Assembly (NCBI GenBank): GCA_051362555.1
Contig: CM120640.1
Coordinates: 52,244,788-52,308,787 of the forward strand
Source: Lingula anatina
Lineage: Eukaryota; Animalia; Brachiopoda
Direction: 5' to 3'
Length of the DNA stretch: 64,000 nucleotides
Part shown: positions 220-43,012 of the stretch, piece after piece
Layout: every line of letters starts with the position of its first letter
Position numbering within the stretch: position 1 is the first letter of the stretch
Notes under the pieces: model-generated
Databases searched by the model: none
Told to the model about the DNA's origin: nothing
What the model saw: the letters and a program-made list of their open reading frames with translations, nothing else
Made by a program: the position numbers and the translations under genes

Positions 220-309
220 ATTCGTAGCCGATTTCAGTTTCTTTCACTTACCACTTTTTTTTCTTTAAGTTTTCAATTTTTTCCAAATCACAGTTGCGCC
301 GTTGTCTTC

Positions 310-18300: not shown

Positions 18301-21300
18301 CTTTCACTTACCACTTTTTTTTCTTTAAGTTTTCAATTTTTTCCAAATCACAGTTGCGCCGTTGTCTTCGTCTATCAGTGCGTCGGGCCACGTCTGGACT
18401 AGGATGGAAGACCGCCTGGCCACCTTTACTTGTCCTTTTTAGCGTGGCATCAAACAGATGTGTCGATTCCGTTTCATTTCCTTTCGGTCGATCAAAAACA
18501 GTGCTAGCGCGGACAGTCATCGTCTACGACCATACCACGTTGAAAGCACCGGTTCTCGTCCGATCACCGAAGTTAAGCAACGTCGGGCCAGGTTAGTACT
18601 TGGATGGGTGACCGCCTGGGAATACCTGGTGCCGTAGACACGTTTTTGACATTTTATTCGTAGCCGATTTCAGTTTCTTTCACTTACCACTTTTTTTTCT
18701 TTAAGTTTTCAATTTTTTCCAAATCACAGTTGCGCCGTTGTCTTCGTCTATCAGTGCGTCGGGCCACGTCTGGACTAGGATGGAAGACCGCCTGGCCACC
18801 TTTACTTGTCCTTTTTAGCGTGGCATCAAACAGATGTGTCGATTCCGTTTCATTTCCTTTCCGTCGATCAAAAACAGTGCTAGCGCGGACGGTCATCGTC
18901 TACGACCATACCACGTTGAAAGCACCGGTTCTCCTCCGATCACCGAAGTTAAGCAACGTCGGGCCAGGTTAGTACTTGGATGGGTGACCGCCTGGGAATA
19001 CCTGGTGCCGTAGACACGTTTTTGACATTTTATTCGTAGCCGATTTCAGTTTCTTTCACTTACCACTTTTTTTTCTTTAAGTTTTCAATTTTTTCCAAAT
19101 CACAGTTGCGCCGTTGTCTTCGTCTATCAGTGCGTCGGGCCACGTCTGGACTAGGATGGAAGACCGCCTGGCCACCTTTACTTGTCCTTTTTAGCGTGGC
19201 ATCAAACAGATGTGTCGATTCCGTTTCATTTCCTTTCCGTCGATCAAAAACAGTGCTAGCGCGGACGGTCATCGTCTACGACCATACCACGTTGAAAGCA
19301 CCGGTTCTCGTCCGATCACCGAAGTTAAGCAACGTCGGGCCAGGTTAGTACTTGGATGGGTGACCGCCTGGGAATACCTGGTGCCGTAGACACGTTTTTG
19401 ACATTTTATTCGTAGCCGATTTCAGTTTCTTTCACTTACCACTTTTTTTTCTTTAAGTTTTCAATTTTTTCCAAATCACAGTTGCGCCGTTGTCTTCGTC
19501 TATCAGTGCGTCGGGCCACGTCTGGACTAGGATGGAAGACCGCCTGGCCACCTTTACTTGTCCTTTTTAGCGTGGCATCAAACAGATGTGTCGATTCCGT
19601 TTCATTTCCTTTCCGTCGATCAAAAACAGTGCTAGCGCGGACGGTCATCGTCTACGACCATACCACGTTGAAAGCACCGGTTCTCGTCCGATCACCGAAG
19701 TTAAGCAACGTCGGGCCAGGTTAGTACTTGGATGGGTGACCGCCTGGGAATACCTGGTGCCGTAGACACGTTTTTGACATTTTATTCGTAGCCGATTTCA
19801 GTTTCTTTCACTTACCACTTTTTTTTCTTTAAGTTTTCAATTTTTTCCAAATCACAGTTGCGCCGTTGTCTTCGTCTATCAGTGCGTCGGGCCACGTCTG
19901 GACTAGGATGGAAGACCGCCTGGCCACCTTTACTTGTCCTTTTTAGCGTGGCATCAAGCAGATGTGTCGATTCCGTTTCATTTCCTTTCCGTCGATCAAA
20001 AACAGTGCTAGCGCGGACAGTCATCGTCTACGACCATACCACGTTGAAAGCACCGGTTCTCGTCCGATCACCGAAGTTAAGCAACGTCGGGCCAGGTTAG
20101 TACTTGGATGGGTGACCGCCTGGGAATACCTGGTGCCGTAGACACGTTTTTGACATTTTATTCGTAGCCGATTTCAGTTTCTTTCACTTACCACTTTTTT
20201 TTCTTTAAGTTTTCAATTTTTTCCAAATCACAGTTGCGCCGTTGTCTTCGTCTATCAGTGCGTCGGGCCACGTCTGGACTAGGATGGAAGACCGCCTGGC
20301 CACCTTTACTTGTCCTTTTTAGCGTGGCATCAAACAGATGTGTCGATTCCGTTTCATTTCCTTTCGGTCGATCAAAAACAGTGCTAGCGCGGACAGTCAT
20401 CGTCTACGACCATACCACGTTGAAAGCACCGGTTCTCGTCCGATCACCGAAGTTAAGCAACGTCGGGCCAGGTTAGTACTTGGATGGGTGACCGCCTGGG
20501 AATACCTGGTGCCGTAGACACGTTTTTGACATTTTATTCGTAGCCGATTTCAGTTTCTTTCACTTACCACTTTTTTTTCTTTAAGTTTTCAATTTTTTCC
20601 AAATCACAGTTGCGCCGTTGTCTTCGTCTATCAGTGCGTCGGGCCACGTCTGGACTAGGATGGAAGACCGCCTGGCCACCTTTACTTGTCCTTTTTAGCG
20701 TGGCATCAAACAGATGTGTCGATTCCGTTTCATTTCCTTTCCGTCGATCAAAAACAGTGCTAGCGCGGACGGTCATCGTCTACGACCATACCACGTTGAA
20801 AGCACCGGTTCTCGTCCGATCACCAAAGTTAAGCAACGTCGGGCCAGGTTAGTACTTGGATGGGTGACCGCCTGGGAATACCTGGTGCCGTAGACACGTT
20901 TTTGACATTTTATTCGTAGCCGATTTCAGTTTCTTTCACTTACCACTTTTTTTTCTTTAAGTTTTCAATTTTTTCCAAATCACAGTTGCGCCGTTGTCTT
21001 CGTCTATCAGTGCGTCGGGCCACGTCTGGACTAGGATGGAAGACCGCCTGGCCACCTTTACTTGTCCTTTTTAGCGTGGCATCAAACAGATGTGTCGATT
21101 CCGTTTCATTTCCTTTCCGTCGATCAAAAACAGTGCTAGCGCGGACGGTCATCGTCTACGACCATACCACGTTGAAAGCACCGGTTCTCGTCCGATCACC
21201 GAAGTTAAGCAACGTCGGGCCAGGTTAGTACTTGGATGGGTGACCGCCTGGGAATACCTGGTGCCGTAGACACGTTTTTGACATTTTATTCGTAGCCGAT

Positions 21301-24300
21301 TTCAGTTTCTTTCACTTACCACTTTTTTTTCTTTAAGTTTTCAATTTTTTCCAAATCACAGTTGCGCCGTTGTCTTCGTCTATCAGTGCGTCGGGCCACG
21401 TCTGGACTAGGATGGAAGACCGCCTGGCCACCTTTACTTGTCCTTTTTAGCGTGGCATCAAACAGATGTGTCGATTCCGTTTCATTTCCTTTCCGTCGAT
21501 CAAAAACAGTGCTAGCGCGGACGGTCATCGTCTACGACCATACCACGTTGAAAGCACCGGTTCTCGTCCGATCACCGAAGTTAAGCAACGTCGGGCCAGG
21601 TTAGTACTTGGATGGGTGACCGCCTGGGAATACCTGGTGCCGTAGACACGTTTTTGACATTTTATTCGTAGCCGATTTCAGTTTCTTTCACTTACCACTT
21701 TTTTTTCTTTAAGTTTTCAATTTTTTCCAAATCACAGTTGCGCCGTTGTCTTCGTCTATCAGTGCGTCGGGCCACGTCTGGACTAGGATGGAAGACCGCC
21801 TGGCCACCTTTACTTGTCCTTTTTAGCGTGGCATCAAACAGATGTGTCGATTCCGTTTCATTTCCTTTCCGTCGATCAAAAACAGTGCTAGCGCGGACAG
21901 TCATCGTCTACGACCATACCACGTTGAAAGCACCGGTTCTCGTCCGATCACCGAAGTTAAGCAACGTCGGGCCAGGTTAGTACTTGGATGGGTGACCGCC
22001 TGGGAATACCTGGTGCCGTAGACACGTTTTTGACATTTTATTCGTAGCCGATTTCAGTTTCTTTCACTTACCACTTTTTTTTCTTTAAGTTTTCAATTTT
22101 TTCCAAATCACAGTTGCGCCGTTGTCTTCGTCTATCAGTGCGTCGGGCCACGTCTGGACTAGGATGGAAGACCGCCTGGCCACCTTTACTTGTCCTTTTT
22201 AGCGTGGCATCAAACAGATGTGTCGATTCCGTTTCATTTCCTTTCCGTCGATCAAAAACAGTGCTAGCGCGGACAGTCATCGTCTACGACCATACCACGT
22301 TGAAAGCACCGGTTCTCGTCCGATCACCGAAGTTAAGCAACGTCGGGCCAGGTTAGTACTTGGATGGGTGACCGCCTGGGAATACCTGGTGCCGTAGACA
22401 CGTTTTTGACATTTTATTCGTAGCCGATTTCAGTTTCTTTCACTTACCACTTTTTTTTCTTTAAGTTTTCAATTTTTTCCAAATCACAGTTGCGCCGTTG
22501 TCTTCGTCTATCAGTGCGTCGGGCCACGTCTGGACTAGGATGGAAGACCGCCTGGCCACCTTTACTTGTCCTTTTTAGCGTGGCATCAAACAGATGTGTC
22601 GATTCCGTTTCATTTCCTTTCCGTCGATCAAAAACAGTGCTAGCGCGGACAGTCATCGTCTACGACCATACCACGTTGAAAGCACCGGTTCTCGTCCGAT
22701 CACCGAAGTTAAGCAACGTCGGGCCAGGTTAGTACTTGGATGGGTGACCGCCTGGGAATACCTGGTGCCGTAGACACGTTTTTGACATTTTATTCGTAGC
22801 CGATTTCAGTTTCTTTCACTTACCACTTTTTTTTCTTTAAGTTTTCAATTTTTTCCAAATCACAGTTGCGCCGTTGTCTTCGTCTATCAGTGCGTCGGGC
22901 CACGTCTGGACTAGGATGGAAGACCGCCTGGCCACCTTTACTTGTCCTTTTTAGCGTGGCATCAAACAGATGTGTCGATTCCGTTTCATTTCCTTTCCGT
23001 CGATCAAAAACAGTGCTAGCGCGGACAGTCATCGTCTACGACCATACCACGTTGAAAGCACCGGTTCTCGTCCGATCACCGAAGTTAAGCAACGTCGGGC
23101 CAGGTTAGTACTTGGATGGGTGACCGCCTGGGAATACCTGGTGCCGTAGACACGTTTTTGACATTTTATTCGTAGCCGATTTCAGTTTCTTTCACTTACC
23201 ACTTTTTTTTCTTTAAGTTTTCAATTTTTTCCAAATCACAGTTGCGCCGTTGTCTTCGTCTATCAGTGCGTCGGGCCACGTCTGGACTAGGATGGAAGAC
23301 CGCCTGGCCACCTTTACTTGTCCTTTTTAGCGTGGCATCAAACAGATGTGTCGATTCCGTTTCATTTCCTTTCCGTCGATCAAAAACAGTGCTAGCGCGG
23401 ACAGTCATCGTCTACGACCATACCACGTTGAAAGCACCGGTTCTCGTCCGATCACCGAAGTTAAGCAACGTCGGGCCAGGTTAGTACTTGGATGGGTGAC
23501 CGCCTGGGAATACCTGGTGCCGTAGACACGTTTTTGACATTTTATTCGTAGCCGATTTCAGTTTCTTTCACTTACCACTTTTTTTTCTTTAAGTTTTCAA
23601 TTTTTTCCAAATCACAGTTGCGCCGTTGTCTTCGTCTATCAGTGCGTCGGGCCACGTCTGGACTAGGATGGAAGACCGCCTGGCCACCTTTACTTGTCCT
23701 TTTTAGCGTGGCATCAAACAGATGTGTCGATTCCGTTTCATTTCCTTTCCGTCGATCAAAAACAGTGCTAGCGCGGACAGTCATCGTCTACGACCATACC
23801 ACGTTGAAAGCACCGGTTCTCGTCCGATCACCGAAGTTAAGCAACGTCGGGCCAGGTTAGTACTTGGATGGGTGACCGCCTGGGAATACCTGGTGCCGTA
23901 GACACGTTTTTGACATTTTATTCGTAGCCGATTTCAGTTTCTTTCACTTACCACTTTTTTTTCTTTAAGTTTTCAATTTTTTCCAAATCACAGTTGCGCC
24001 GTTGTCTTCGTCTATCAGTGCGTCGGGCCACGTCTGGACTAGGATGGAAGACCGCCTGGCCACCTTTACTTGTCCTTTTTAGCGTGGCATCAAACAGATG
24101 TGTCGATTCCGTTTCATTTCCTTTCCGTCGATCAAAAACAGTGCTAGCGCGGACAGTCATCGTCTACGACCATACCACGTTGAAAGCACCGGTTCTCGTC
24201 CGATCACCGAAGTTAAGCAACGTCGGGCCAGGTTAGTACTTGGATGGGTGACCGCCTGGGAATACCTGGTGCCGTAGACACGTTTTTGACATTTTATTCG

Positions 24301-25669
24301 TAGCCGATTTCAGTTTCTTTCACTTACCACTTTTTTTTCTTTAAGTTTTCAATTTTTTCCAAATCACAGTTGCGCCGTTGTCTTCGTCTATCAGTGCGTC
24401 GGGCCACGTCTGGACTAGGATGGAAGACCGCCTGGCCACCTTTACTTGTCCTTTTTAGCGTGGCATCAAACAGATGTGTCGATTCCGTTTCATTTCCTTT
24501 CCGTCGATCAAAAACAGTGCTAGCGCGGACAGTCATCGTCTACGACCATACCACGTTGAAAGCACCGGTTCTCGTCCGATCACCGAAGTTAAGCAACGTC
24601 GGGCCAGGTTAGTACTTGGATGGGTGACCGCCTGGCAATACCTGGTGCCGTAGACACGTTTTTGACATTTTATTCGTAGCCGATTTCAGTTTCTTTCACT
24701 TACCACTTTTTTTTTCTTTAAGTTTTCAATTTTTTTCCAAATCACAGTTGCGCCGTTGTCTTCGTCTATCAGTGCGTCGGGCCACGTCTGGACTAGGATG
24801 GAAGACCGCCTGGCCACCTTTACTTGTCCTTTTTAGCGTGGCATCAAACAGATGTGTCGATTCCGTTTCATTTCCTTTCCGTCGATCAAAAACAGTGCTA
24901 GCGCGGACAGTCATCGTCTACGACCATACCACGTTGAAAGCACCGGTTCTCGTCCGATCACCGAAGTTAAGCAACGTCGGGCCAGGTTAGTACTTGGATG
25001 GGTGACCGCCTGGGAATACCTGGTGCCGTAGACACGTTTTTGACATTTTATTCGTAGCCGATTTCAGTTTCTTTCACTTACCACTTTTTTTTCTTTAAGT
25101 TTTCAATTTTTTTCCAAATCACAGTTGCGCCGTTGTCTTCGTCTATCAGTGCGTCGGGCCACGTCTGGACTAGGATGGAAGACCGCCTGGCCACCTTTAC
25201 TTGTCCTTTTTAGCGTGGCATCAAACAGATGTGTCGATTCCGTTTCATTTCCTTTCCGTCGATCAAAAACAGTGCTAGCGCGGACAGTCATCGTCTACGA
25301 CCATACCACGTTGAAAGCACCGGTTCTCGTCCGATCACCGAAGTTAAGCAACGTCGGGCCAGGTTAGTACTTGGATGGGTGACCGCCTGGGAATACCTGG
25401 TGCCGTAGACACGTTTTTGACATTTTATTCGTAGCCGATTTCAGTTTCTTTCACTTACCACTTTTTTTTCTTTAAGTTTTCAATTTTTTTCCAAATCACA
25501 GTTGCGCCGTTGTCTTCGTCTATCAGTGCGTCGGGCCACGTCTGGACTAGGATGGAAGACCGCCTGGCCACCTTTACTTGTCCTTTTTAGCGTGGCATCA
25601 AACAGATGTGTCGATTCCGTTTCATTTCCTTTCCGTCGATCAAAAACAGTGCTAGCGCGGACAGTCATC

Positions 25670-25771
25670 GTCTACGACCATACCACGTTGAAAGCACCGG
25701 TTCTCGTCCGATCACCGAAGTTAAGCAACGTCGGGCCAGGTTAGTACTTGGATGGGTGACCGCCTGGGAAT
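25670..25771 (+). rRNA. 5S rRNA gene interrupted after nt 102 by transposon 1 (3' remainder resumes at 33376-33392)
   Basis: 5S sequence is perfect to ...CCGCCTGGGAAT, then switches to unrelated GGCCCATGA. ACCTGGTGCCGTAGACA and the normal spacer resume at 33376. Confidence 0.97.
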
Positions 25772-26269
25772 GGCCCATGACCCCCCTGGGTAGTAATCAT
25801 AGTTCCTGGGAATCACGATGGTGGCGCTGAAGGGATAAACCCTTTGATCGTACAAGACGAGCCATGCTGGTTTTGTCAAAATTTATAAGCAGAATATCAT
25901 AATATCCTTCTTTTTGATGTTTACTCATTGTAACAATAAAAGGCATTTTTCATGATTATATAAAATTATTTTTCTTTCTTTTTCGACAGTTTTTAGAGTT
26001 TCCTCTTTAGGTATTTTATATAACACACTCTTCTTCGATTTTAATTTGAAATGAAAATTTTAAAAAGAGAGTAAAATTAAATTGTACTTCTTTGTTTCTT
26101 ACTGCGGTAATTTCATTTATTTCCTGTTTAATTAAATGACTCAAGTATGACAACTGAAATGTCTTCTTCAACACATCTTTATTATGGAAAAAATGAACAA
26201 AAAGTTACTGAAACAACATGAGTATTGAAAATGCACAAATATGAACAACAAGCATGTGCAACATTACTG

Positions 26270-27010
26270 CATTGGACAGAACATATTTGGTTTCTTTGGT
26301 ACCAGTTGCATAGAAAAATCACTGAATATACATTTTGCACAACTAATACAACTGAAAATATTTAAATGACAGTATGTAATATGCATTTCCCACAATCTGC
26401 TCAACATTCTACATGGAAATAGAAAATAAAAACAGTCAAAAAAACTGACCGACTGTGATTTTCTCAATGATAATGCAAAGAAAATCACATTTTACAAAAA
26501 TATATGTTTGATCCAAGTCTGCTGACTGGAATATAAGAATAATACACAGTTTCTTTGGCCTCTGTTGCATAGAAAACAGTACAAACCACTGCATACAAAA
26601 TGTTTTTCACACAATCATTTCACCTTTGGTAAAACAAAGAAAAAAATCTTGTGGGAATTGATTGCTTGTAATACAACTTGTAATACAAAATACTGACAAT
26701 GTAAAGAGGTTCATGTTTCATAAAATACATGGTTTGAGGAAAATCTACCTACAGAAATATAAAAAATAATACATATATACAGTTTCTTTGGCCTCTGATG
26801 CATGGAATTAAATACAAACTGCTGCATACAAAATGCTTTTCACACAATCTCTTGAATGCAACTAGTCATACAAAATACTGATTTCAATGTAAAGAAATTC
26901 ATTTTCCTTACATACATGGTTTGAGCACTCTACTGACTGAAATATAAAAAATAATACATATTAACAGTTTCTTTGGCACCTTGCATACAAAAATACAAAT
27001 CACTGCGAGT
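26270..27010. repeat. Degenerate ~190-260-bp tandem repeats in the 3' non-coding part of element A
   Basis: The motif acagtttctttggcctctg.tgcat...gcatacaaaatg recurs near 26547, 26779 and 26964, with a weaker copy near 26290. Confidence 0.7.
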
Positions 27011-27134
27011 GAAGTCCAGTTAAAAAAAAAAAAGAAAAGTCATTAGCAGTATTTGGAGATTTCACAGACTCATGGCATGCATTGGGCACAAAAAAGTCTT
27101 AGTTCTATCTTCATGTAACATTATAATTTGGGCA

Positions 27135-30100
27135 CTAGAGCTGTGCCAATCTTTGGTCTACAAAAGACTTAAAATCCTCATAATCTTTAAAAACTTCCTT
27201 TTCAAATCCTGCTGTCGTTGACATTTTTGTTGTCGGACAAAAAGTAAAAATTTTTTGTTTGCTTTTGCTTGTTTTTTCCTTTGATGGTGTGTATCTCCTC
27301 CTTTTTCCACCACATTTGGGTACTTTACACAGTGCACATGGTTTCGATGATTTGTTTGGCATGGTAATTTTTGCTGGCAGTGGTGGTAGTGGTGCCTTGA
27401 TTACGGGAGGACCTCCAGGCTGACAAATCACAGACGGGCCCTTTGGCTGAGAGGGGAGCACTATAAGAACAGGGGCATTTACAGGTTTTGGCTTAATGTC
27501 TTCCTTCTTAACTTTGCTTGATGCAGAAGCAACATCACCCTCAGTCTGCGGAGAAATGTCATTAAAATCTAACTTCCTCTTTTGCCCAGGCCTGATGCCT
27601 TTGATGAATGGTACTACAGGGTACTGCACCTGTGGCCGTCTAGGTGGTAAGAGCACCGATGGCAAGGTGTCAGCCTCTGGAATTGCTGCTTCAGATAACA
27701 CTCGCTGATGGGTCTTGACCTTCGGCAAGGAAGTGGCGACATAGTTTGCTTTCTTCTCCTCTTTGGTCAGAAATGCACTGATGGATTTAGCATTTATATT
27801 CGGTAGAGGCAAGTTCAGACTGCACAGCATGGGGTCGTCCCTCACTCGATCTACTATGCGTTTGTAGTGTGCCTTGATGAGTGAAGACAATCTGGACGGA
27901 GAACTGGTGTAACACGTTGGTGGCTTGTTTTTCAGGATTTTTATGAGCAAGTACAAAAGCCTGGACTCCTCTGTGATTTGTGCCGCTTGTGCGTATCTCA
28001 TCCAGCCAAATTTTGTTTTTTGAGCTGCACTGGACTGTGGAGAATCTGGACCAAGGCATCGACCAAAGAGGGTGTAACCCCACTTAGATTCGTATTTCTT
28101 GACAAAATTGGTTGTCGACTTATCATGATCCTGTAGGTTTGAAGCAGCGGTTATGATCTTGTTTCTAAGTGTCGGTGGCACAAGGTGCTTCCCATCTTCA
28201 GCAGCCAATTCCACTAGCTGCAAGGCCAGGTGTTCCACCTCTTCATAACCAGGCAGGTGTAAATGGCTGGGACCCATGAGCACATCTTCCAGCACTGGGT
28301 TTGACAGCTCTGTGACTTGCTCTGAGGTGGTGAAAATAGAGTATTTGACGTTTACTTCATCCAAAGGATCATTGGATTGCTCCTCCTCATCTTCTACGAT
28401 GCCCTCATCTTCCTCATCATCTGTCTGAGCTCCTTCCTCATCACCATCCTCCCTTGACTGCTCTTCCTCAACTGTAAAGAAAAAATACAAGATATACTAA
28501 GACAGATTAAGACAATAAATTACAAACTAAAGACAAGAAATTTGTTCTGTAAAAAAGTGAAAAAAAAAAAAAAGAATATTACAGTACAAAGATTTTCTTT
28601 TTTAAAGTTCATTGCTTATTATGATTTACATTGAACAATGAAAATTAATTTGCTGCAACCATTAACAATTCATTCTATAGACTAATTAAATCATTACAAT
28701 TCATGTGAAAATCTTACCCTTCTCCACATAGTATGATGCAGACTTGAAGTCAGTGGACTGAGCATACGCATACTCGATACCAAGCAACTCTTCTTCTTCC
28801 TCATTATTGTAGACCTCTGGGAATGGCATTGGTGCAGTGAAGTTAGGTTCAAAGAGGTGTTCCCTGCCAAACAAAACCTCTGACTGTTGGTTTAAGAGCT
28901 GCACTTGCCTGGGATCAGTGCACGATGACTTCCGCCCCTGACCACCTGCGACACGCAAGGACTCCATCCTGTGGTTCCACTGGGCAGCAAAACTGATCAG
29001 GTACACCTGGTGAAAAAAATTTTTAAAAATTGATTCAAGGATCAACAATTTCGTGATATTCGGTGAACTTGATTTTATAATTATGGATTCTTAATATTTA
29101 TCAGAAAAAAAAACCTTTAAAATACAGGTAAGTATTCACTGACAATTACAAAAAAATCAATCAATCAATCAATAATTTAAAAAATAAATATATTTTTTAC
29201 CTGAAATGGCATGATGCCACACCTTTTGGAGGGGATAGCATTCACAAGGTGGGAATGTAGACCTTCAAGGGCATTACTTCCTCTACGACAACGGTACTTC
29301 TGCACATCTACACCATTGATTGACACCGTCTTAGTGGTTACATACAGCGGTATGCCAGGAGGATCCTAGAATATACAAATTGTGATAATAAAGAATAAGT
29401 TAAATGGAATTTGTTTTCCCCTTCTATTGGGTAATGAACGCATTCTGCAAAAGGAAACTATAAAGTTGTAAAAAGACTAGATAAAGTAAGACGTACCTGC
29501 AAACAGTTAATGTGCTGACTAGATCTTGCCCAGTGGATATCCACGGCTTCATGAGACTTGAAAAGGGGTATGCCATCTACGTCGAGTCCAGCTGGTCCTT
29601 TAAACTCGTCTATGATGGCTTCTACTGCACACACTGTTGCCTGCAAGTGGAATAACATTTTTATATAATTTTTTTGTTCAGCAAATAAGTTTTAATTTTC
29701 ATGAAAGGTATGCTTATTTTGAAGAAAAATGTTATGTAAATTATTGGTTTGTATGTCATGAAAAAGGCTGAAGTGAAACATACCTCTACACCACGTGTCA
29801 CTCGCCGTACATAAGACTTGAACTGGTGAGGCTTGACAAAGGCAATCATCTCAGTGTCAGAGTATTTTGAGTACATCTGCTCATTGCCTGCCCGCACTGC
29901 CTTGACCAAATGTAGCAGGTCAGCCTTGTTGAATGCCAATACTGCTCCTGCAAGGGCGCTCATGAACACACCATACTTCGCATGACTCTGCTTTATCACG
30001 ACACTGTCCCATCTGTGGAGCCAGTGTCGGATATCCAGTCTGACAACCATGCCCTCCTCAACCCAGTCTGAGAACAATGTCTCATAAAAGGATTCTCCAC

Positions 30101-32669
30101 CATCCCTAATATTCAAATAAGACAAAATATATAAATAAATAAAACAAATCATTCTCATTAAAAAAAACTTACCATAGAATAATTTTTCTAAATGGATTAA
30201 AACCACTTAAAAATTAATGGGATAAAGGACATTTTTTCTAAATAAATGGTCTTCCATTCCTATCATATTAATGATATTTGCATTGAAATAAACACGAACA
30301 ATGATGCTTAACTAGTAACATACCTGCAACAATTATTGTCTGTGTACAGAACTCGTGGGGCTGGAGCATCAGCACGCTTAAAACGCTCAATTAGTCCTCG
30401 AGCCATCCTCCTGTAACACTCCTCGGACTCGGAGGCTACAACAACTGTGGTGAGGAACTGGCCCCATTCATTTAATATGCTGGTCACATACTGCAGTGAT
30501 CCACGTCCATCACCATACACTTTCTTGAGTATCTAGGAGGTTAAAAACAAGAGACATGTTAAGTAAATGAGTATAAATTTCACTGAAATAAATTTTCTGG
30601 AATAAAAAAAAGGAAACTTTTTCTCTTAAAACCACACTAACCTGTTTAGTGCCATCAATACAAAGGATTTCTCCTGTGGTGCTGAGTATGGAGGCCCTGT
30701 ATTCTGGAATTTTTTCCATTTCCATCACCAAGTGGGCACGTCGCAGGACACGAGATGAAGGAAGTGGAGTCTGAGCCATTGGTGGTATGTAGCTCCCGGC
30801 TTTCTTAGTGTACGACAGGATGCTGCTTCTGTCCATATGACCTTGATACAGCAGAGTCTGGTACATCCCTCTTCTCTCCATGTACCACTGGTCATGTTGG
30901 CGCTGTACCAGTCTGTGCACCTTGGTCATTGACACAGCATTCAGCCTGTCAGACAAAATCACAGCTATGTCCTTATCTATAGCCCTTTTTCCACAGATGA
31001 CAGCTGGAAAGAGACTGCGGACTGCCGGTGACAATTTCATCATAATCCGAGGGCTGTAACTGTGAAAAGAATACTGGGTTTCCTCATTTTCTCCCCTCTG
31101 CTGACGTGCATTTTTGCATGGGTAGCAAACCAGCCTTTCCGTCAAAAGGGTATAAAAACTCCGCATTCCACACACCTGCCTGGCAGTTGACCCAAAGCCA
31201 TGCTTGGACAAGAAACTTCCAGGTGGAGCAGGACAGTCCTTATTTGGGCATGGTATCTTGGCCTCCATGACCCCTACTGGTCTCCAGAATATCACAGGCG
31301 ATGTGAAGAAGGCATACATTGAGGGCAGTGATGCCTTAATAGAAATTGGCATTGGTGGTGGGTAAAAGTTGATCTTTTTCTTAAGAACCCTCTTATACAC
31401 AACTTCCCCACTGGCACTTCTGTATGGTATTGGTGCAGTAAAAAGTCCATACTCATCATTTTCCTTGAGCCACTTGATGTTAGGGTCTGGGCTTCCCTCC
31501 CACGACCTCTGCCACCCTTCCAATGCAGGGGCCTCTGGATCAGGGGTGAACTCCGCAGTGATCTCCAGCTCCTTTACAGAGGTCAGGTGGGTAGATACCT
31601 GGCTCTGCTGTAATGCTTCCTCTAAAAGTAACAAATATATAACATCGAGTCCCTGTCTAATGGGATATGTGCTGGATATGGGATACCTGGTGTATTATGC
31701 ATTACAGTCAGGGTATAATAAAGTCAAACTGTAAAGATAATGTTACAATTTCAAGTTGCATTCTTACATTATTTAACTCTGTGTGTTATGTGAAGACAGC
31801 CTTATACATCTGCAAAGGTTAATCATTTTACCTGCTTGTGTCAACAGAATGGAATCCTCAACATATCCAGGATCTTCCTCCATCTCTTTTGCCAACATCA
31901 GTGATCTTTCTGCTCCCTCAATATCTTTAGCTTTCTGTAATTAAATTTACTGTGTGCTAAGTATAGGCACTAACAACATGAATAATCTGAGATTAAAACA
32001 ATAAATAAAGACATCATTTGTAAGGAAAAGACTTTTATAGCAGCATTAGTCATAAATGGGAACAGGGGTATATTTACATTGAAATAAGTGGAAAAAAGCA
32101 TAAAAAACATATGATACCTGTAACTTTCTCTCCAGGTGAATGTTCACAGCAGGAAATTCTTTCACCAAGTCCAGCAGCTGCTGCTTCTGCCATTTGATCT
32201 GCATATTGGACTCTCCCTTCAGACAGTATTCAGCCAACAGCCAGACCACCCATCCAACATCATTTTCAAGGAGCCACTTGTAAGACTTGCCCTGGAATTT
32301 CCCAAATGTCATGACTAGCATAAGCCGCCACTGGTCATTGCCTAGCTGGCGGGCTTTTGCTTCTGCACTGGCTGGGTCTAACCACAACTGGTCTAAAGCA
32401 GACTCTGGGCGGAATGCTTTAGCTTCTGGGGTGGATTGTAGCATAGCTTCTCCTGGCTTGTACATACGAATGGAGGGGTAGAGGTGCTGCCGTGCGTGGC
32501 TCTCGAGGTGCCCCTTCTGATTAAATGTCTTGGAACAGTGTGGACAACTGTAAGCTTTAGCCCTCTCCTCATTGTGTATTAGCTGCATGTGTCTATTTAG
32601 ATTAGCTTTGAATCTAAAATACTTAAGGCATACACCGCACTGGAACTGTGTTTTACTGCTAGGTTCCAT
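27135..32669 (-). CDS. Dada-type DDE transposase with two N-terminal C2H2 zinc fingers, ~1366 aa, 9 coding exons: 32669-32118, 31934-31832, 31621-30642, 30532-30324, 30105-29784, 29640-29497, 29365-29201, 29006-28718, 28471-27135
   Basis: All introns are GT..AG and the exons total 4101 nt in one open frame. Motifs in order: CGVC..HMQLIH and CPHC..HARQH zinc fingers; FGKFQGKSYKWLLENDVG; ILCIDGTKQ (D1); NEWGQ; VLYTDNNCC (D2); VRLDIRHW (DxxH); CLQDPPG..YRCRRGSNALEGLH (E); C-terminal CALCKVPKC..FC. These recall Dada transposases (related to MuDR/hAT/Kolobok DDE enzymes). Confidence 0.88.
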
Positions 32670-33240
32670 ATTTACTGAAAACATAAAAAAAAGTCTACTA
32701 AATACCCAAAATACTGCTGTAATGTTAATTAGTTGCATATATATGTATATATACACATATATAAGCACAAGTCATCGGGAAAATATTTTAATAAAGTTTT
32801 TAAACAGAACACTGTGGCATACTACCCCCCCCCCCCCCCCACCCCGGCGATTAAAGATAAAGGTATTAACAGGTCACTATGAGCTTTATTTGAATGAATT
32901 AAAGTTTAAATACCAAACAGTACATGTTGCGAAATGTATACACTGGCCAAGTGCCGGTACATGCAAAACGCCATACTAATTCAGTTTTGCGGATCAATAC
33001 TAAGTAAACACAAAAAGTACAGCTGCCGGTATTTTCAAAACGGCAACAAATATGTGGTCATATCTTACCTTGAATAAATCCTTACTGCACCCGGAATTGA
33101 AAATATGCACTATGGCCTAAATGGCATCAGCATCGAATGAGAGAGATTCGACAGAGATTTCGAAGCGGAGAAACATGAGGCACCGCCATCTTGCCTTCTT
33201 CTTCACGATCTTTGTTAATTAGAGATTGTTTTACTCTAAG

Positions 33241-33327
33241 CCAATCGTTGAGCCCTGTTGAGGACGAGGACTGCTCAACAGACCAATCAGACGAGGGGCA
33301 GGCTGCTCAACAAAGCTCAATGATTGG
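33241..33327. promoter_or_regulatory. Subterminal inverted repeat with CCAAT boxes upstream of the transposase gene (element A)
   Basis: CCAATCGTTGAGCCCTGTTGAG (33241-33262) versus CTCAACAAAGCTCAATGATTGG (33306-33327). An extra CTCAACA/CCAATC lies between them. A likely non-coding first exon ends at the splice donor at 33068. Confidence 0.6.
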
Positions 33328-33649
33328 TTGGTCGAGCCTAAGTGTTACTACTTGGCTGGGTGAGCGCCTGGGAATACCTGGTGCCGTAGACACGTTTTTG
33401 ACATTTTATTCGTAGCCGATTTCAGTTTCTTTCACTTACCACTTTTTTTTCTTTAAGTTTTCAATTTTTTCCAAATCACAGTTGCGCCGTTGTCTTCGTC
33501 TATCAGTGCGTCGGGCCACGTCTGGACTAGGATGGAAGACCGCCTGGCCACCTTTACTTGTCCTTTTTAGCGTGGCATCAAACAGATGTGTCGATTCCGT
33601 TTCATTTCCTTTCCGTCGATCAAAAACAGTGCTAGCGCGGACAGTCATC

Positions 33650-33768
33650 GTCTACGACCATACCACGTTGAAAGCACCGGTTCTCGTCCGATCACCGAAG
33701 TTAAGCAACGTCGGGCCAGGTTAGTACTTGGATGGGTGACCGCCTGGGAATACCTGGTGCCGTAGACA
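33650..33768 (+). rRNA. 5S rRNA gene (intact, between the two transposons)
   Basis: Identical to the array consensus. Confidence 0.97.
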
Positions 33769-34025
33769 CGTTTTTGACATTTTATTCGTAGCCGATTTCA
33801 GTTTCTTTCACTTACCACTTTTTTTTCTTTAAGTTTTCAGTTTTTTCCAAATCACAGTTGCGCCGTTGTCTTCGTCTATCAGTGCGTCGGGCCACGTCTG
33901 GACTAGGATGGAAGACCGCCTGGCCACCTTTACTTGTCCTTTTTAGCGTGGCATCAAACAGATGTGTCGATTCCGTTTCATTTCCTTTCCGTCGATCAAA
34001 AACAGTGCTAGCGCGGACAGTCATC

Positions 34026-34144
34026 GTCTACGACCATACCACGTTGAAAGCACCGGTTCTCGTCCGATCACCGAAGTTAAGCAACGTCGGGCCAGTTTAG
34101 TACTTGGATGGGTGACCGCCTGGGAATACCTGGTGCCGTAGACA
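34026..34144 (+). rRNA. 5S rRNA gene (single G>T variant in GCCAGGTTAG)
   Basis: Array consensus except gccagtttag. Confidence 0.95.
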
Positions 34145-34402
34145 CGTTTTTGACATTTTATTCGTAGCCGATTTCAGTTTCTTTCACTTACCACTTTTTT
34201 TTCTTTAAGTTTTCAATTTTTTTCCAAATCACAGTTGCGCCGTTGTCTTCGTCTATCAGTGCGTCGGGCCACGTCTGGACTAGGATGGAAGACCGCCTGG
34301 CCACCTTTACTTGTCCTTTTTAGCGTGGCATCAAACAGATGTGTCGATTCCGTTTCATTTCCTTTCCGTCGATCAAAAACAGTGCTAGCGCGGACAGTCA
34401 TC

Positions 34403-34504
34403 GTCTACGACCATACCACGTTGAAAGCACCGGTTCTCGTCCGATCACCGAAGTTAAGCAACGTCGGGCCAGGTTAGTACTTGGATGGGTGACCGCCTGG
34501 GAAT
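34403..34504 (+). rRNA. 5S rRNA gene interrupted after nt 102 by transposon 2
   Basis: Perfect 5S to ...CCGCCTGGGAAT, then GGGCAATGACCC. A degenerate 3' remainder (ACCTGGCACCGTAGACATGTTTTT) resumes at 41727. Confidence 0.95.
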
Positions 34505-34949
34505 GGGCAATGACCCCTCCAAGTACTTATCCTGGTTTCTGATCACCCCCCTTGGGGCGCTGCTGAACGTAATTACACCCCAAGACGAGACAAGTATTTA
34601 AGAACTGTCATGTAATCACTTTCCGTTTCATTTTGTAAATGAAAGGCTTGATTTTTACTAATATTCTAAGTACTGAATGATGTATAATAATATATTTAAA
34701 GAATTCTCACCAACAACATAAGAAACACATGTAATATTGAGAAAGTTTATTAGAAAAAAAAAGTATTCCATTTCAAACTTTATTAAAAATATATTTGTAA
34801 GTCAGTTTAACCGCATGATTTTGCAGTTGCTGAATTCTCACATATCATCAAAATACCCATTTTAAACTTAAAAACAGTTTACATTTAATACAAAAATACT
34901 ACTTGTAGAAAATTATAGTTAATAATTTTCATTTACCACAACTTTTTCT

Positions 34950-35400
34950 AAGAAATTGAGCAATGAACATGTAACTTTGTATGAAAACTTTGCCAATCAG
35001 CAGCATGAAATTGAGCCATTGTTGCATTTCTACATTCTACAATCAAAACAAACATCTGTGAGTTAGAACAGTGTACATCTTACACAAAAACACTGTCTGT
35101 AGAAAGCACCTGTAAAACATGCACTTACTACTCTATTTCTCTATTAAAACGCTAGTCTAATAAAATTGATCAACGAACATGTAACATTACTTCATATGAA
35201 AACTTTGGCACTCATATCAGCATGAAATTGAGCAATTGTTGTATTTCTACATTTTACCAAGAAAGTAAAATCTACTGACTAAAAAACTACATCTTACACA
35301 AAAAATCTGCTCGTAGAAAATGCAAAACAGATAAACATGCGCTTGCAACTTTTATTCAATGAAAACACTATGTTAATGAAACTGAGCAATGAACGTGGGA
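34950..35400. repeat. Degenerate ~210-bp tandem repeats in the 3' non-coding part of element B
   Basis: gagcaatgaacatgtaac...atgaaaactttg...cagcatgaaattgagc recurs near 34958, 35168 and partly at 35384. Confidence 0.65.
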
Positions 35401-37695
35401 ATTCTTTTAATTAATACCCTCCTCATTTGAAAGATTAATAAGGAATGTGTCAACAACAGTTTTAAAATGATCATAATCATTATACACAACACCTTCAAAG
35501 CCTTCTGTCATTGATTTTCTTGTGGTGGGACAATATGTAAAGATCTTCTGCTTTCTCCTTTGAAGGCATGTACCTTTTCTTCATTCCACCACAGTTTGGA
35601 ATTTGGCACAAGCCACATGGCTTTGATGACTTCTTTGGAAGAATGGGTCTTGAGGGAATTGGTAGAGGTGGGGGCTGGAAGACCAAACCACCTGAGGAAG
35701 TCGCAGGCTGGAGAAGAGCTGCAGGACCCTGTGGCTGAGAGGGGACAACTAGGAGAACTGGAACATGTGCAGATTCTTGCGATTTAATAAGAACTGGTTT
35801 TGTCTTGCCGGTCAAGGAGCTGGTTGACTTGGAGCAGGTTGTAGCTGGCTGACTTTCATCAAATTGTAGCTTCCTCTTTTGACCTAATCTTATTCCCTTT
35901 GTGAGTGGTATCACAGGATACTGCACCTCTGGACGGTTGGGTGGTGAGAGGGATGTTGGAAGTTCAGCTGCCTTGGGCATTTTGCTTTCTTCAAGGACTC
36001 TCTGATGAGGCTTAACCTTTGGTATAGCAGTTGCCACTAAATTTGCCCTTTTCTCTTCTTTAACAAGAAATGATGATATTGATTTTGCATTGATATTTGG
36101 CAAAGGCAAGTTCAAGGTACACAGTACAGGATCGTCTCTTACTCTGTCCACAAGGCGTTTATAGTCTGCCTTCACACGGGTGACTAGTTTGGATGGAGAA
36201 GTGACATAACAGGTTGGTGGTCTGTTCTTTAGAAGCTTAATAAGTAGATATAACAATCTTGACTCCTCAGTGATGGCAGCAGCCTGTGCGTAGCGCATCC
36301 ATCCAAATTTGGTTTTTTGTGCAGCACTGTTTTCAGGAGAGTCTGGACTAAGGCAACGGCCAAACAAGGTGTAACCCCACTTGGACTCGTACATCTTCAC
36401 AAAGTTCTTGGAGGTCTTGTCATGGTCATGAAGTTTGGAAGCAGCCATGCGTATCTGTTCTCTGAGAGGCACGGGCACTAAATGCCTGTCATCAGTGGTC
36501 AACTTTGTCAGTAGATTGGCCAAATTCTCCACTTCCTCATAGCCTGGCAGGTGTAGGTGCCTAGGACCCATCAGCACATCCTCTAGTGCAGGACTGGAGA
36601 TTTCTCCTACTTGTTCAGATGTTGTGAAAACAGAGTACTTGGTATTGGCTTCATCCACTGGATCCTCCATGGAGTCTTCTTCAATCCCCCATCTTCTTGG
36701 TCAGATTGAGTCTCCTGCTCCTCCTCCTCTTCACCATCCTCCTTTGACTGCTCTTCATCCACTGTAAAACACGAAATACAATGACCATGAATCATTAAAT
36801 TGAAAGGGAAAACAAGTGCAATATTTTGCGTTCTAAACCTGTTAAGATATTCAGAAATCATCAAAATTACTTTGTTCCTCATAAAATTATGCATTTATTT
36901 TGATTTTCTTTTCTCTATCAAATAATAAAAGTTATATTTGAAATCTGAATACACATCTTACCCTTTTGAATATAATATTCTCTGGATGTAAAATCAGTAG
37001 ACTGGCAAAAAGCATACTCTACTCCTAAGAGTTCTCTTTCTTCAGGATCCTGATACTCTACTGGACATGGCAGTGGAGCAGTAAAATTAGGCTCAAATAG
37101 GTGACGCCTGCCAAACAAAACCTCAGACTGCTGATTCAGAAGCTGAATCTGTCTTGGATCTGAGCAGGATGACAAACGTCCCCGACCTCCAGCAACACGC
37201 AGAGACTCCATTCTGTTGTTCCATTGGACAGCAAAGGAGATGAGGTACACCTGCAGAGATATCTTTAAATTATTCACTATTTCATGTAATAAATTAGGCA
37301 ACCCTTTTGTATCAAATTTCTTAAAAAATTCTACCATGTTTGAGTTCACATCCACTCCTCAATAAATAAAAATTAAATCAAAATGTTTGTTGGTTGTTAA
37401 AAAGTAAATTGCAGTGTACAGGAATGATTGATGCATACACAGTGCTTACCTGGAATGGCATGATACCACATTTTTGAGAAGGAACAGCTCTAAATAGGTG
37501 GGCATGCAGACCTTCCAGAGAGTTGCTTCCCCTATGACACCTGTACTTTTGCAGGGCTACACCATTGATGGTGACCGTCTTAGTGGCTACGTATAATGCT
37601 ATACCAGGTGGGTCCTGAAATATATAAATTTTAATAATTAAGTGCAAAGATTACTGAATCTGATGAATCCAATATGGTGACTTGTTAGTTTGAGT

Positions 37696-37697
<2 letters not shown>

Positions 37698-37749
<52 letters not shown>
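37698..37749 (+). repeat. Poly-T tract (~50 nt) in an intron of element B
   Basis: Uninterrupted T run. Confidence 0.9.
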
Positions 37750-37750
<1 letters not shown>

Positions 37751-39966
37751 TTGAGAGGACTACCTGGAAAAATCCAAATGAAAGCAATATGTATCTAGAC
37801 AAAGAAAACAAACAACATATACCTGCATGCAGTTTATGTGTTGACTTGAACTAGCCACAGTAGTGAGAAATTGACCCCATTCATTAAGCACACTGGTAAC
37901 ATACTGCATGGTACCTTGTCCATCATAATTTCTTAAATGCACTGAAATTCATTTTCCAAAATAACATAACTGCTACCTTAATACACTAAAACATTTAAAC
38001 ATGGAATGCTATTTGAGACATGTTTTTTATTTAATGCTCACAAATTCAAAGTAACTAAAATAATACAGGGGGTAATAAAAAAACATACAATGTTTATAGC
38101 CTAATGGTGTCCATACCTGTCTTGTGCCATCTATACAAAGGATTTCTCCAGTTACACTGAGGATGGATTCCCTGTAGACTGGCATCTTCTCCATTTCACT
38201 CAGCATGTGTGCACGTCGTAACACCCGAGCAGATGGCACTGGAGTAGGGGGGAGTGGTGGAGTGTAGCTACCTGGAGTTTTTAAGAATGAAACTATGCTA
38301 GGCTGGGATGATGCACTGGCACTGTCAGGGGGACTGCTCGAGGTATGGACATATGGACATCATACAACACAGCCTGGTACAAACCCCTTCTTTCAGTATA
38401 CCACTCAGCATGTCCCTGCTGAATGAGACGTTGCACTTTACTCATGGAAATGGAATTTATTCTGTCATTCAGCAGTGTCACGATGCTCCTGTCTACTGCT
38501 CTTTTGCCACACAAAATGGCAGTGAAAATGCTTCGGACAGCTGTTGGCAGATTCATTAAGATCTGTGGACTGCTGGCATTCCACGAATACTGTATGTTTC
38601 TTCCTTCACAACTGACACCATCTTGTCCCTGGCTGACAGTTGGACGAGATTTGAGGCAATGAGGGCAAACAAGGCGTTCTGTCAACATAGTGTAATGGTA
38701 CCTCATTCCACAGACAAGACGTGCGGTGCTGCTGTAGCCATGTTTGATTAAATAATGCCCAGGAGGAGCAGAACACTTCAAATTTGGACATTTAATTTTC
38801 AATCCCATCACACCTACTGGCCGCCAAACAAAGGCTGGGGTTGAAAAAAAGCTAGCTTGTTGGGAATCGAGTCCTTTACTGCAGTTGGTAGTGGTGGAGG
38901 ATGGAAATCCATCTTGGGCTTAAAAGTTTTTCTAATAACCATTATACCTTTGGCAGTACTGTGCTCCTTTCCCATGTAAAAAAGTCCGCACTCATCACTG
39001 TCTCTCAACCACTTGATGTTGGCTGCCATGATGCCCTCCGCCTGATCACTCCAAGACTTCTGCCAGCCTTCTAAAACAACAGAACCTGATGCTTCATCAG
39101 AAGGGACTATTGAAGGTGAAGTGATGTCCTGAGATGCATCAGATTATGTGATATTTCCCCAGGTAGTCAACTGAGAGGAGACAGCCACCTCCAACTTAAC
39201 TAACACATCCTCTGAAAAGTAAAAACATTATCTTAGCTTAATCAGTGACAACACAAAGCCTATGTGATAATGTGGTTAATTTGGTTTTAAAAAATGTTAA
39301 AAGAAAAATTGCATTTTAACAATACACAATTCTTTGTGTGCAGCAGTGGTCTACTATATCTGCAACAGTACATTATTTTACCTACTTGTGTCAACAGTAT
39401 GGAATCCTCGACATATCCAGGGTCTTGTTCCATCTCTCTCTTCAACCTTAGCTCTTTGTCAGCTTCCTTTTTTTCTCTCTTGATTTCTGCAATTATAGGT
39501 TTAAAAGTGTGATAACTATAACCTGTAATTATTTGTATATGAACAATCTAAAATAAAACAACCTGAAATATACATATCACATGGCATGTCATTTATTGTT
39601 AAGATTATGAGTGGGCATATTCAAATTGAATTCACTTATAAAAAAAGAGAAGTCTTACCTGCAACTATCTCTCTAAATGCACATAGACTGCTGGGAATAG
39701 CTTTACCAGTTCCTGTTTTTGCCGCTTTATTTTTTCGTTGTTTTCTCCTTTCAGATAGAACTCTGACATCATCCACACACACATACCAGCCAACATCGTT
39801 CTCCAAAGCCACTTGTAGTTTTGACCACTATACAAAATAAGATGAAAAATAGAGTTAAAAATGTTCAGAAGACTTTACATAAAAAGAAACAAACATTTAA
39901 TAATAATCATTACTTAACATACATAACACAGAATTTATAATATTTAAAAGATCATGTTTTAGTTAA

Positions 39967-40600
39967 AGCAATAATAACTCTTCCCTTGAGATTCAAAATT
40001 CCGCAAGAAATACATTGTAAACAACACATGGAAATATATTTTATTGCATTTTACCACTAAAATGGTCGTAATTGTAGTAAAACTAAAATCTGTGCTTGTC
40101 AATAGGGCTTTCGATGCCTTTCTTCCCGGTTGTCAAGGCATCCGGATTCTCGCGTTCATTCGAGACCAAAATAACATGGCGCCAAACTACTGATGCAATC
40201 TGCAGACGTAAGTTGTGAGTTTTTGTACAGTACGTCGGATAATGAAAAGCCCAGAATTGCACACATCGTAGATATAAATGCATTTTGAGCAATAAGACAA
40301 ATGTATCTTATGAATCTTATATTATTGTTATATAGTGTTGTTGTTGTCTGCTTTTCCCGCTGTTTTAAGTAGGTCACCAGAAAATATCGCTCGATATCTC
40401 GTGATTATGCATTGTCAGAGAGGGTTCCGTCAGTTAAAATCTCTTAAGAGATTTTAACAAAAAACCAAACTTTTAGGGAAAAAACCCTAGACTAACTTTG
40501 AATGCAGGAATGGGGTCGTTGACCATTGGTAAGTAAGGGAAAATTGCCGTTTACTTCAGGAAAATCCAATTTTTGACCAAAACAAAGAGTTATTATGACT
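39967..40600. mobile_element. Non-autonomous TIR element with TTAA TSD (Kolobok-like MITE) nested in an intron of element B
   Basis: TTAA|AGCAATAATAACTCTT ... AAGAGTTATTATGACT|TTAA, with AG..CT termini. The internal sequence resembles 56870-56950 and 59650-59749. Confidence 0.7.
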
Positions 40601-41580
40601 TTAAGCACAATAAATACATAGAAATATCACCTGGATTTCCTTTAGGTGATGAACAACATCAACCACCACTGGTCACCAGCCAATCTTGCTGCAGCCTCTG
40701 CAGTTTCAGGCTCAGACCACATAGGATCCATTGGTTTACTGCACTGCAGTATTGCCTCTCAAATCCTGGCTTGTACATGGGGATGACTGGGTAGAGGTGC
40801 TGCCTAGTGTGTCTTTCCAAATGCCCTTTCTGTGAAAATGTTTTCGGACAATGCAGGCATCTATGTGGCTTCACCCTGGCCTCATCATGGGTCAGCATGT
40901 GCCTGGTCAAGTTAGCCTTAAACGCGAAAGATTTCTGGCACACGTCACACTGGAACACTTTTGTGTCATCCATGCTTATTTACTAGAGAAAAAGGCAACA
41001 AATAGCAATAAATATACGATAACACAAACAGCACTATTAACAAATAGTAGGTATACCCAAATTTTATACATTTTGTACATCTAAGCAATAATGAGTATGA
41101 TATATTAAATTCAGCTAATATAATCTGCACCCCCCCCCCCCCCACCAAGTCAAAATATGTGCGTGAAATGAGGTAACATAATAATTAGTGGAGGAGTAAC
41201 TTCCTTATTTACTGTTTATATATACGTGTATATTTAGTTCAATAATTTCAGAACTACTCAAGAATATGTTAAGCACGGCAAATCTACACTTAAGAGTAAA
41301 GATTCAACAGACTCTGCTATTTTCTTGACCTAAATTTCCTTTGTTATTTGGCCATGGTACACATTAGCTAAATTCAAGGAGTAACTCCTTGCTAAAATTA
41401 ACACTATTTTCATCACAAGCAAGGCAAAGCTTACCTCTGTGATCTCTTTACAAAAATTCCTTTCCAACAGACCAAAAAGCGGGCAGATGGATGAAGCCTG
41501 TGCTAAGTGGATGCAGAAAGAAATTTTGAAGCGGCAATTGCTTCTTCACACTCTTAAACAATTAGAGACTGTTTTAGTGG

Positions 41581-41680
41581 AGCCAATCATTGAGTGCTGT
41601 TGAGGAAACCTCTCCTCAACAGAGCACTGCGATTGGACTTTTGAGCAGAAGGTTTCCTCAACAGGGCTCAATGATTGGCT
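41581..41680. promoter_or_regulatory. Subterminal 31-bp inverted repeat with CCAAT boxes (element B), homologous to that of element A
   Basis: AGCCAATCATTGAGTGCTGTTGAGGAAACCT (41581-41611) versus AGGTTTCCTCAACAGGGCTCAATGATTGGCT (41650-41680), 2 mismatches. Confidence 0.7.
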
Positions 41681-41726
41681 GGTTGAGGGCTTCAATAAGT
41701 ACTTTCCTGCGTGACTGCCTGGCAAT

Positions 41727-42104
41727 ACCTGGCACCGTAGACATGTTTTTGACATTTTATTCATAGCCGATTTCAGTTTCATTCACTTACTACTTTTTTT
41801 CTTTAAGATTTCAATTTTCTGAAAATAGCACTTGCGCCGTTTGTCTTCGTCTACCAGTGCATCGGACTAGGTCAGGACTAGGATAGAAGACTGCTTGGCC
41901 ACCTTTTCCTCTTTAGCATCGCATCAAATACAGATGTGTCGATTCTGTTTCGTTTCTTTTCAGTTTGAAGAAAACAGTGCTGGCGCACCAGCATTCATCG
42001 TCAAAGACCACACCACATTGAAAGCACTGGTTCTCGTCCGATCACCAAAGTCAAGCAAAGTCGGGCCAGGTTAGTACTTGGATAGGTAACCACCTTGTAG
42101 GAAT
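41727..42104 (+). pseudogene. Degenerate terminal 5S unit: 5S 3' remnant, diverged spacer and 5S pseudogene (42000-~42104)
   Basis: GTCAAAGACCACACCACATTGAAAGCACTGG...GTTAGTACTTGGATAGGTAACCACCT-tgta-GGAAT. Many substitutions; similarity stops at about nt 102. Confidence 0.9.
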
Positions 42105-43012
42105 GTCTGAGAGAAATTTTGAAGTGTATTGAAGATCTTGAAATTGTTCTCAATCTATTATACTTGTCAAGTAACTCATCTATTCGCTTTCCCCCAATAT
42201 ATTCTTAATATGCTGTATGTTTGTTATGTTAGGGACTACAATGAACGTTTTTCCAGCTTTTACTTAACATTGAGCAATTATTGCTTTTTCTGAAGACAAC
42301 CTGAAATTTCAATTTTGAAATACAGAATTGGAGGTAAATATCATCCACGCCATTTATCTATAAACAAAAATTAAAGCAGTATTTTAAATCCATTTAACTA
42401 TATTATTTATTTCAATTTCATGTTTCCTGTGTGGACTTACAACTAGAGATATCCCATGGTAACAGTCATGGTTGGCAATGAAAAATTTATGAAGACTGCT
42501 TTACTGAAACAATATTTTGTAAAAAAAAAAAAAAAATACTTCACTAAATAAAATACTCTGGATTACTGCTATTCATGTTATATAAAAAAAAAGCACCATC
42601 TTTTAAAACAGCATTATACAAAAGTGTACAAAAGTGAGCTTGTTGAAAACAATTATGGATATAATATATAAGAGTATTGGACCTGGTCTGAATTACAGAC
42701 AAAGCAATAATATTTTTTAAAATTCCAAACAGGCAAAGAAAAAATATGTATATGTATTTTCTATTGCAGAAATTCACTGATATGTTTGGCACAGCTACTA
42801 AATTTACTGATCTATAGAAAAAAAATTAGAATCTCAATATAAATCTAGTCATCTATAGCAAAAAAATACAATTTCTGGTATCAATACGTTTGGCATAACT
42901 TCAATAGTTGCTCTCTGCCTATTGCAATAGTAAATTTGGCACATCAAAAACCACTTTTGTTTTTCTCATTATCATATTAGAGACCATTCTCAGACCTTAT
43001 CATACTAACTGT

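Follow-up and report, generated by a model that had tools for sequence, protein, structure and literature searches.

The DNA transposons of the Dada superfamily, defined by Kojima and Jurka in 2013 (PMC3706591), are described as elements of 4.7-11 kb that carry an intron-containing gene, generate target site duplications of 6-7 bp, lack long terminal inverted repeats and bear a short subterminal inverted repeat that is also found in the target at the same distance. That paper gives the spacing of the N-terminal CCCC finger as 4/34/2 in Dada-U6_DR, describes a C-terminal CCHC finger, reports subterminal repeats common to element and target for both Dada-U6 and Dada-U1, and speculates that such repeats serve target recognition. 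A lineage that inserts into the 5S rRNA gene is also on record: Kojima 2022 (PMC8869645) names Dada-5S, with six families – Dada-5S-A/B_CaAu, _ClH, _LaRo, _NoCe and _OrMe – from five fish species and the target ATTCCCAGGCGGTC, describes similar target sequences in unrelated RNA genes among Dada lineages that are related to each other, and reports that only Dada-U6 had been found across phyla. Tandem Dada-U1 copies one duplication apart, and carried-over duplications in Dada-tA, are described in the same two papers (PMC8869645, PMC3706591). The 5S rRNA gene is likewise the target of Mutsu, a non-LTR retrotransposon named in PMC3706591.

The locus described here is a stretch of 64,000 nucleotides from the brachiopod Lingula anatina (hereafter the window), in which a 5S rDNA array is interrupted by two elements, A and B (Table 1). 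We hold with high confidence that both are DDE transposons of the Dada-5S lineage that inserted separately after nt 102 of a 5S gene with a 6-bp duplication, that A is intact and B dead, and that the site is likely found because nt 71-96 of the gene resemble the element ends. A sequence-only reading of the window had proposed a Dada lineage with a new target; this is refuted by Dada-5S, already catalogued with an identical 14-bp target (PMC8869645), and what is new is probably only the host, together with the sign of a lineage that is likely far older than fish. Our search, which covered openly accessible literature and not Repbase, Dfam or subscription journals, turned up no Dada-5S described from a host other than fish.

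Table 1. Elements A and B and the 5S rDNA in which they lie (window positions; nt, position in the 5S gene)
Feature	Position	Strand	Particulars
Tandem 5S rDNA array	1..25669	+	68 whole genes; unit 375-378 bp; >99% identity
5S nt 1-102 left of element A	25670..25771	+	left duplication GGGAAT = 25766-25771
Half-site, 5S nt 71-96	within 25670..25771 left of A		counterpart of element ends
Element A, intact Dada-5S	25772..33369	-	7598 bp; GGGAAT on both sides
A left end	25772..25797		matches target half-site at 14/26; GTAGTAA, subterminal (19-25), recurs inverted at right end
Transposase CDS of A	27135..32669	-	9 coding exons, 8 introns, all GT-AG; 1366 aa, no internal stop
A exons 1-5	32669-32118, 31934-31832, 31621-30642, 30532-30324, 30105-29784	-	
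A exons 6-9	29640-29497, 29365-29201, 29006-28718, 28471-27135	-	
A right end	33344..33369		23/26 like 5S nt 71-96
Right duplication of A, GGGAAT	33370..33375	+	followed by 5S nt 103-119
Whole 5S genes (two) separating A from B	33650..34144	+	33650-33768, 34026-34144
5S nt 1-102 left of element B	34403..34504	+	left duplication GGGAAT = 34499-34504
Element B, defective Dada-5S	34505..41720	-	7216 bp; GGGAAT left, GGCAAT right
B ends			each matches half-site at 19/26; subterminal inverted repeat AAGTACTTAT (17-26)
Broken transposase gene of B	35431..40976	-	at least 4 frame changes, one stop
Right duplication of B, GGCAAT (41721-41726), and last, decayed array unit	41721..42105	+	

The window contains 72 exact 5S starts (73 matches to Rfam RF00001), spaced at 375-378 bp except across element A. 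The reverse complement of ATTCCCAGGCGGTC corresponds to nt 89-102 of the window's 5S gene and occurs 71 times, the four sites past 25700 belonging to the 5S genes at the two left junctions and to those lying between these. Junction coordinates confirm that both elements split a 5S gene directly after nt 102, with nt 97-119 resuming beyond each, and that both transposase genes run antisense to 5S, as had been claimed; the further claim that both duplicate GGGAAT stands for A and fails on the right side of B. Both junctions fall on the identical base of the 376-bp unit. Because of this shared base, and because three of the four ends in the window match the half-site at 19-23 of 26 positions against a maximum of 16 in element interiors, chance placement is excluded. 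The claim of 5S specificity is supported: within the window it rests on the two full-length elements (2/2 in the 5S target), and the published Dada-5S has the identical target; copies with non-5S flanks may exist elsewhere. The insertions likely cost the host little, at least 70 whole 5S genes being present in the window.

Membership of A and B in Dada-5S is firm. At 7598 and 7216 bp, with 8 introns in the coding sequence of A, the elements have the size and gene structure of Dada, and their duplications (GGGAAT/GGGAAT in A, GGGAAT/GGCAAT in B) the published length; subterminal repeats (GTAGTAA in A, AAGTACTTAT in B) lie in register at both ends, AAGTAC occupying 17-22 of the target half-site. 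The spliced 1366-aa protein predicted by the sequence-only reading proved identical to a RefSeq protein of Lingula anatina (LOC106171268; P0001). In it Pfam finds two C2H2 fingers (aa 9-62) and DUF6729, within which lies a CCCC finger (C343/C348/C384/C387, spacing 4/35/2); the catalytic residues, D541, D610, D639xxH642 and E804, make up a DDE triad whose second D is followed by DxxH. Among the non-gap rows of a 96-row alignment these are conserved in 72/83 (D541), 84/91 (D610), 93/94 (D639), 89/93 (H642) and 83/89 (E804), and B in its present state lacks D610 and DxxH. The C-terminal finger of A reads C-x2-C-x4-C...C and lacks a His in third position; the same holds for L005, a fish-type copy discussed below, and for three more proteins of the lineage, whereas Dada-U1-type proteins have the His. 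Its absence departs from the 2013 description and counts against the assignment, though it appears to be a trait of the Dada-5S lineage more than a ground for exclusion from Dada.

L005 came from a scan of metagenomes for the junction. Of six matches, three (L002, L004, L005) represent one fish-type Dada-5S junction; the others (L001, L003, L006) were set aside as chance matches with neither 5S nor transposase. The contig L005 holds a whole element of 8218 bp in a 5S gene, at the identical base as A and B, and by eye both its ends agree with the Dada-5S_ClH entry as published. A search of viral contigs gave 13 pattern matches and no relatives. A, B and L005 fall in one clade (IQ-TREE 100/100; FastTree 1.0) set apart from Dada-U1; the Dada-5S and Dada-U1 labels in the trees were tied to published entries by eye; one of the five Dada-U1-type proteins, P0037, matches a published Dada-U1_TaFl passage. 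Against L005 both A and B show 64% identity, against the five Dada-U1-type proteins 33-40%. Comparison by eye gives, for A against one published Dada-5S entry, 44/58 and 31/32 identical residues in two passages, and for an end of B against two published ends, 35/42 and 34/42 bases. The WMRY motif of A and B, back-translated, occurs three times in one form in the 2022 dataset, each time in a part with Dada-5S entries, and five other forms occur there not at all. The assignment to Dada made from the letters of the window is upheld.

Set against the fish elements, the likeness extends to the insertion point, the antisense orientation, homologous ends, the DIRH form of DxxH and a transposase 64-65% identical. 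What differs is the host, a brachiopod and not a ray-finned fish, the presence of two families 33% diverged at one locus, and a 5′ end of A that is nearer to 5S sequence (23/26) than that of L005 (16/26). Published Dada-5S entries appear to begin one base later, as if the duplication were of 7 bp; the symmetry of the ends favours 6, peaking at that length with 15/26 in A, 18/26 in B and 15/26 in L005 (3-11 bp tested in the window elements). Dada-U1, the sister lineage in Kojima 2022 (PMC8869645), belongs to the same superfamily and resembles the elements here in the sequence of its target, in having subterminal repeats that recur in that target and in the occurrence of two families at one site; it differs in its U1 snRNA target, its DIFH motif and the His of its C-terminal finger.

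A is transcribed at a low level, and its transcripts are spliced: in a sample of about 6% of RNA runs X11 and X14, 85 and 65 reads fall on A, and four reads in each skip the last intron exactly. Provided that the libraries follow the usual stranded design, the strand of the RNA agrees with that of the A gene. Loose poly(A) and poly(C) ends in X11 were discounted, being located at genomic homopolymers.

For other samples and RNA, five different runs among 21 listed were compared, four with A and four with B. Contigs from two DNA runs of separate studies (X2 and X7) extend from both ends of A into 5S. At the left junctions they carry 27-28 letters of 5S, and at the right junction of X2 25, all below a threshold of 31 letters, as would be expected of an assembly graph that branches into an array; the right junction of X7 carries 47. 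The A-type copy differs little from A in X2 and has deletions and a frameshift in X7. The junctions and right flank of B recur in X2, X4 and X7. These insertions are thus common to individuals and not fresh. With 77 and 1033 further rows of loose ends beyond those listed, some copies may have flanks other than 5S.

The sequence-only reading missed that B is defective. B is homologous to A over its whole length (67% identity over 763 positions), and has lost the counterpart of aa ~577-759 of A in a deletion with its junction near 37855, which removed D610 and DxxH; as its sequence stands, B can only be dead or moved in trans. Relative to A it has an extra GT-AG intron near 39833-40630, which contains a high-copy repeat. 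Contigs of X2 and X4 start exactly at 37855 and a contig of X7 spans the junction; such starts could mean an undeleted B-type copy, or a nearby variant. By read depth, 39960-40604, within the extra intron, and 42982-43171 are two very high-copy dispersed repeats.

The array units between A and B are 99% identical to the array. The last unit, right of B, matches the standard unit at 318/370 aligned bases, 11 of its 52 mismatches being CpG transitions, and from this decayed flank B appears to be the older insertion, marking the edge of array homogenisation. The last, decayed 5S gene (42000-42112) itself stops at about nt 102, ending in GGAAT after a 3-base insertion; it is possibly the scar of a third, older insertion, and the sequence beyond has no likeness to Dada ends. 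The split 5S genes (25670-25874, 34403-34634) retain nt 1-102, and the first TTTT lies 100 (A) and 127 (B) bases inside the element, so placed that Pol III read-through RNAs antisense to the 3′ ends of the elements are possible; a read-through 5S-element RNA showed no unusual fold (z -0.42).

A central issue is how the site is found. Read inward from the 6-bp duplication and compared with 5S nt 96 to 71 (26 bases), the left and right ends match at 14 and 23 positions in A, 19 and 19 in B, and 15 and 16 in L005, and AAGTA stands at 17-21 in seven of eight sequences (six ends and two targets). Of 29,204 interior 26-mers of the elements none exceeds 16/26; 18 reach at least 14, which puts the left end of A inside the upper tail of the background. 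Against the four window ends, the right side of the target scores only 7-12/26. Gene conversion from the array may have contributed to the high score of the right end of A. With a right end so like the target, the right junction rebuilds a near-perfect target and leaves the site available, in keeping with the tandem Dada-U1 copies of the 2013 paper (PMC3706591). Position 9 of the promoter-side end equals the host 5S base in two lineages: the base is A in both window elements (33361, 41712) as in the 5S gene that they target, and T in L005 as in the gene that it targets.

These observations probably reflect a shared binding surface: a single DNA-binding surface would recognise the 26-bp half-site in the 5S target as well as at either end of the element, recognition would be one-sided, and the joint would be placed 6 bp from the bound half-site. 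A lead to a possible route comes from the predicted fold of a fish homologue, P0017, 65% identical to A (96-row alignment, pLDDT 86.5; an earlier model built from 27 rows, pLDDT 48.5, gave no fold match). The model is of an RNase H-like DDE fold, and its top match is ISCth4 (Foldseek E 4.7e-5; Z 13.4, rmsd 7.5, 353 aligned), followed by integrases, Hermes (hAT, Z 8.3) and P (Z 7.9); a likeness of Dada to the latter three had been proposed from sequence in 2013 (PMC3706591). In ISCth4, a member of the IS256 family, the attack by one end falls 6-8 bp away from the second end, which is bound, and the ends are joined across a 6-8-bp spacer; its insertions make 8-bp duplications in unspecific A/T-rich targets (PMC7780238). 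The structural match, the binding of 26 bp of the end and the spacer-joined ends are shared features or candidates for such; ISCth4 is nonetheless bacterial, 10% identical, has true terminal inverted repeats and no fixed target, and it offers a lead as to how Dada-5S might work and not a claim of membership.

Tentatively, then, and with rather less conviction than for the shared surface, Dada-5S may follow an IS256-like copy-out/paste-in route through a spacer-bearing circle, in which the attack on an end takes place a constant distance away from a bound recipient end and the 5S half-site would stand in for that recipient. A comparable proposal has been published for KolobokP (PMC9587614). The tandem Dada-U1 copies and carried-over Dada-tA duplications fit a spacer-bearing intermediate, a reading that is ours and not that of the original authors. 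Among the joints listed for A and B, in contigs that drop rare forms, there was no end-to-end circle junction.

A competing account, which we judge rather unlikely, has Dada-5S move by ordinary cut-and-paste, with a distinct module selecting the site – either the two N-terminal C2H2 fingers or a tether to TFIIIA/Pol III factors on the internal promoter – and with the likeness of ends and target a by-product of conversion or of carried-over flank. The two fingers at aa 9-62 of A would suit such a module, the half-site overlaps the 5S internal control region, and Hermes and P, which share the predicted fold, are cut-and-paste enzymes. Conversion would also account for the right end of A, flanked by homogenised array, being the most 5S-like (23/26 versus 14-19 in the others), but it leaves the left ends, which face away from like sequence and hold the motif in register (B 19/26, L005 15/26). 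The account also sits poorly with related Dada lineages having similar targets in unrelated RNA genes (PMC8869645) and with the subterminal repeats that Dada-U6 and Dada-U1 share with their targets (PMC3706591).

Two further accounts concern the origin of the insertions. That one insertion was duplicated with its 5S unit and diverged in place is very improbable: A and B do share base and orientation, lie ~1.1 kb apart and are sisters in the corrected tree (FastTree 1.0), yet their proteins have diverged by 33% with the frame of A intact, and their intron number differs, while the units between them remain 99% like the array. The sisterhood is weak in the IQ-TREE tree, where part of the B projection was intron sequence and the pair shows 65% identity with support of 79.9/47; it points to an old split of two families and not to a local copy, and the view of two diverged families inserted separately, first formed from the letters alone, is sustained. 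Scarcely credible is that unspecific Dada copies, or a 5S-specific retroelement such as Mutsu, happen to lie in 5S. End-less Dada fragments do occur outside the array, but two families and a fish copy occupy the identical base, A has introns, a DDE fold and no reverse transcriptase match, and B has no reverse transcriptase; the site common to the published Dada-5S refutes both variants.

The end-less Dada-5S fragments lie on the opposite strand at 44200-45825, 53537-54713, 60464-61539 and 62245-62445; they are 74-96% like B or 73-91% like A, with no termini matched. Inside a B-like fragment sits an apparently intact tyrosine-recombinase retrotransposon (45814-53546, + strand), which by its layout we take to be of the Ngaro type. 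It has split direct repeats (45814-46100 = 53049-53335, 99%; 52877-53060 = 53363-53546, 98%) and reading frames for a GDSL/SGNH-like protein, a gag-like protein, RT-RNase H and a recombinase.

Returning to the Dada-5S lineage, named homologues of its transposase occur in lancelets, crinoids, sea stars, urchins, a sea cucumber, Priapulus and Dreissena, and their target would presumably also be the 5S gene. All 107 matches of one search score higher against a Labeo Dada-5S-type protein than against two Dada-U1-type proteins, a result biased in that direction by the query, an exon of B. Lancelet proteins (P0004, P0019, P0022) nest among fish ones in the IQ-TREE tree, and a priapulid protein (P0091) pairs closely with an urchin protein (FastTree), patterns for which horizontal transfer is a possible cause. 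Since the lancelet proteins nest among those of fish, old descent and transfer have likely both played a part. The lineage itself is likely far older than fish.

The 5S junctions verified here for A and B would make Dada-5S the second Dada lineage to cross phyla. More broadly, the match to ISCth4 together with the likeness of ends and target provides a concrete, testable mechanism. The available text of the two Dada papers (PMC8869645, PMC3706591) reports no assay of how Dada reads its site; A, by its sequence an intact and site-specific DDE transposase, is transcribed, has a target nearly the same as that in fish, and could be used for such a test. The boldest reading – that Dada-5S is pan-bilaterian and has kept to one 5S base since before the protostome/deuterostome split, and that an IS256-like enzyme finds this base by end mimicry through a circular intermediate – is, taken whole, unlikely. 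If true, it would explain the specificity of Dada, its tandem copies and its 'replaced' duplications together, and A would be an intact enzyme with which to test it.
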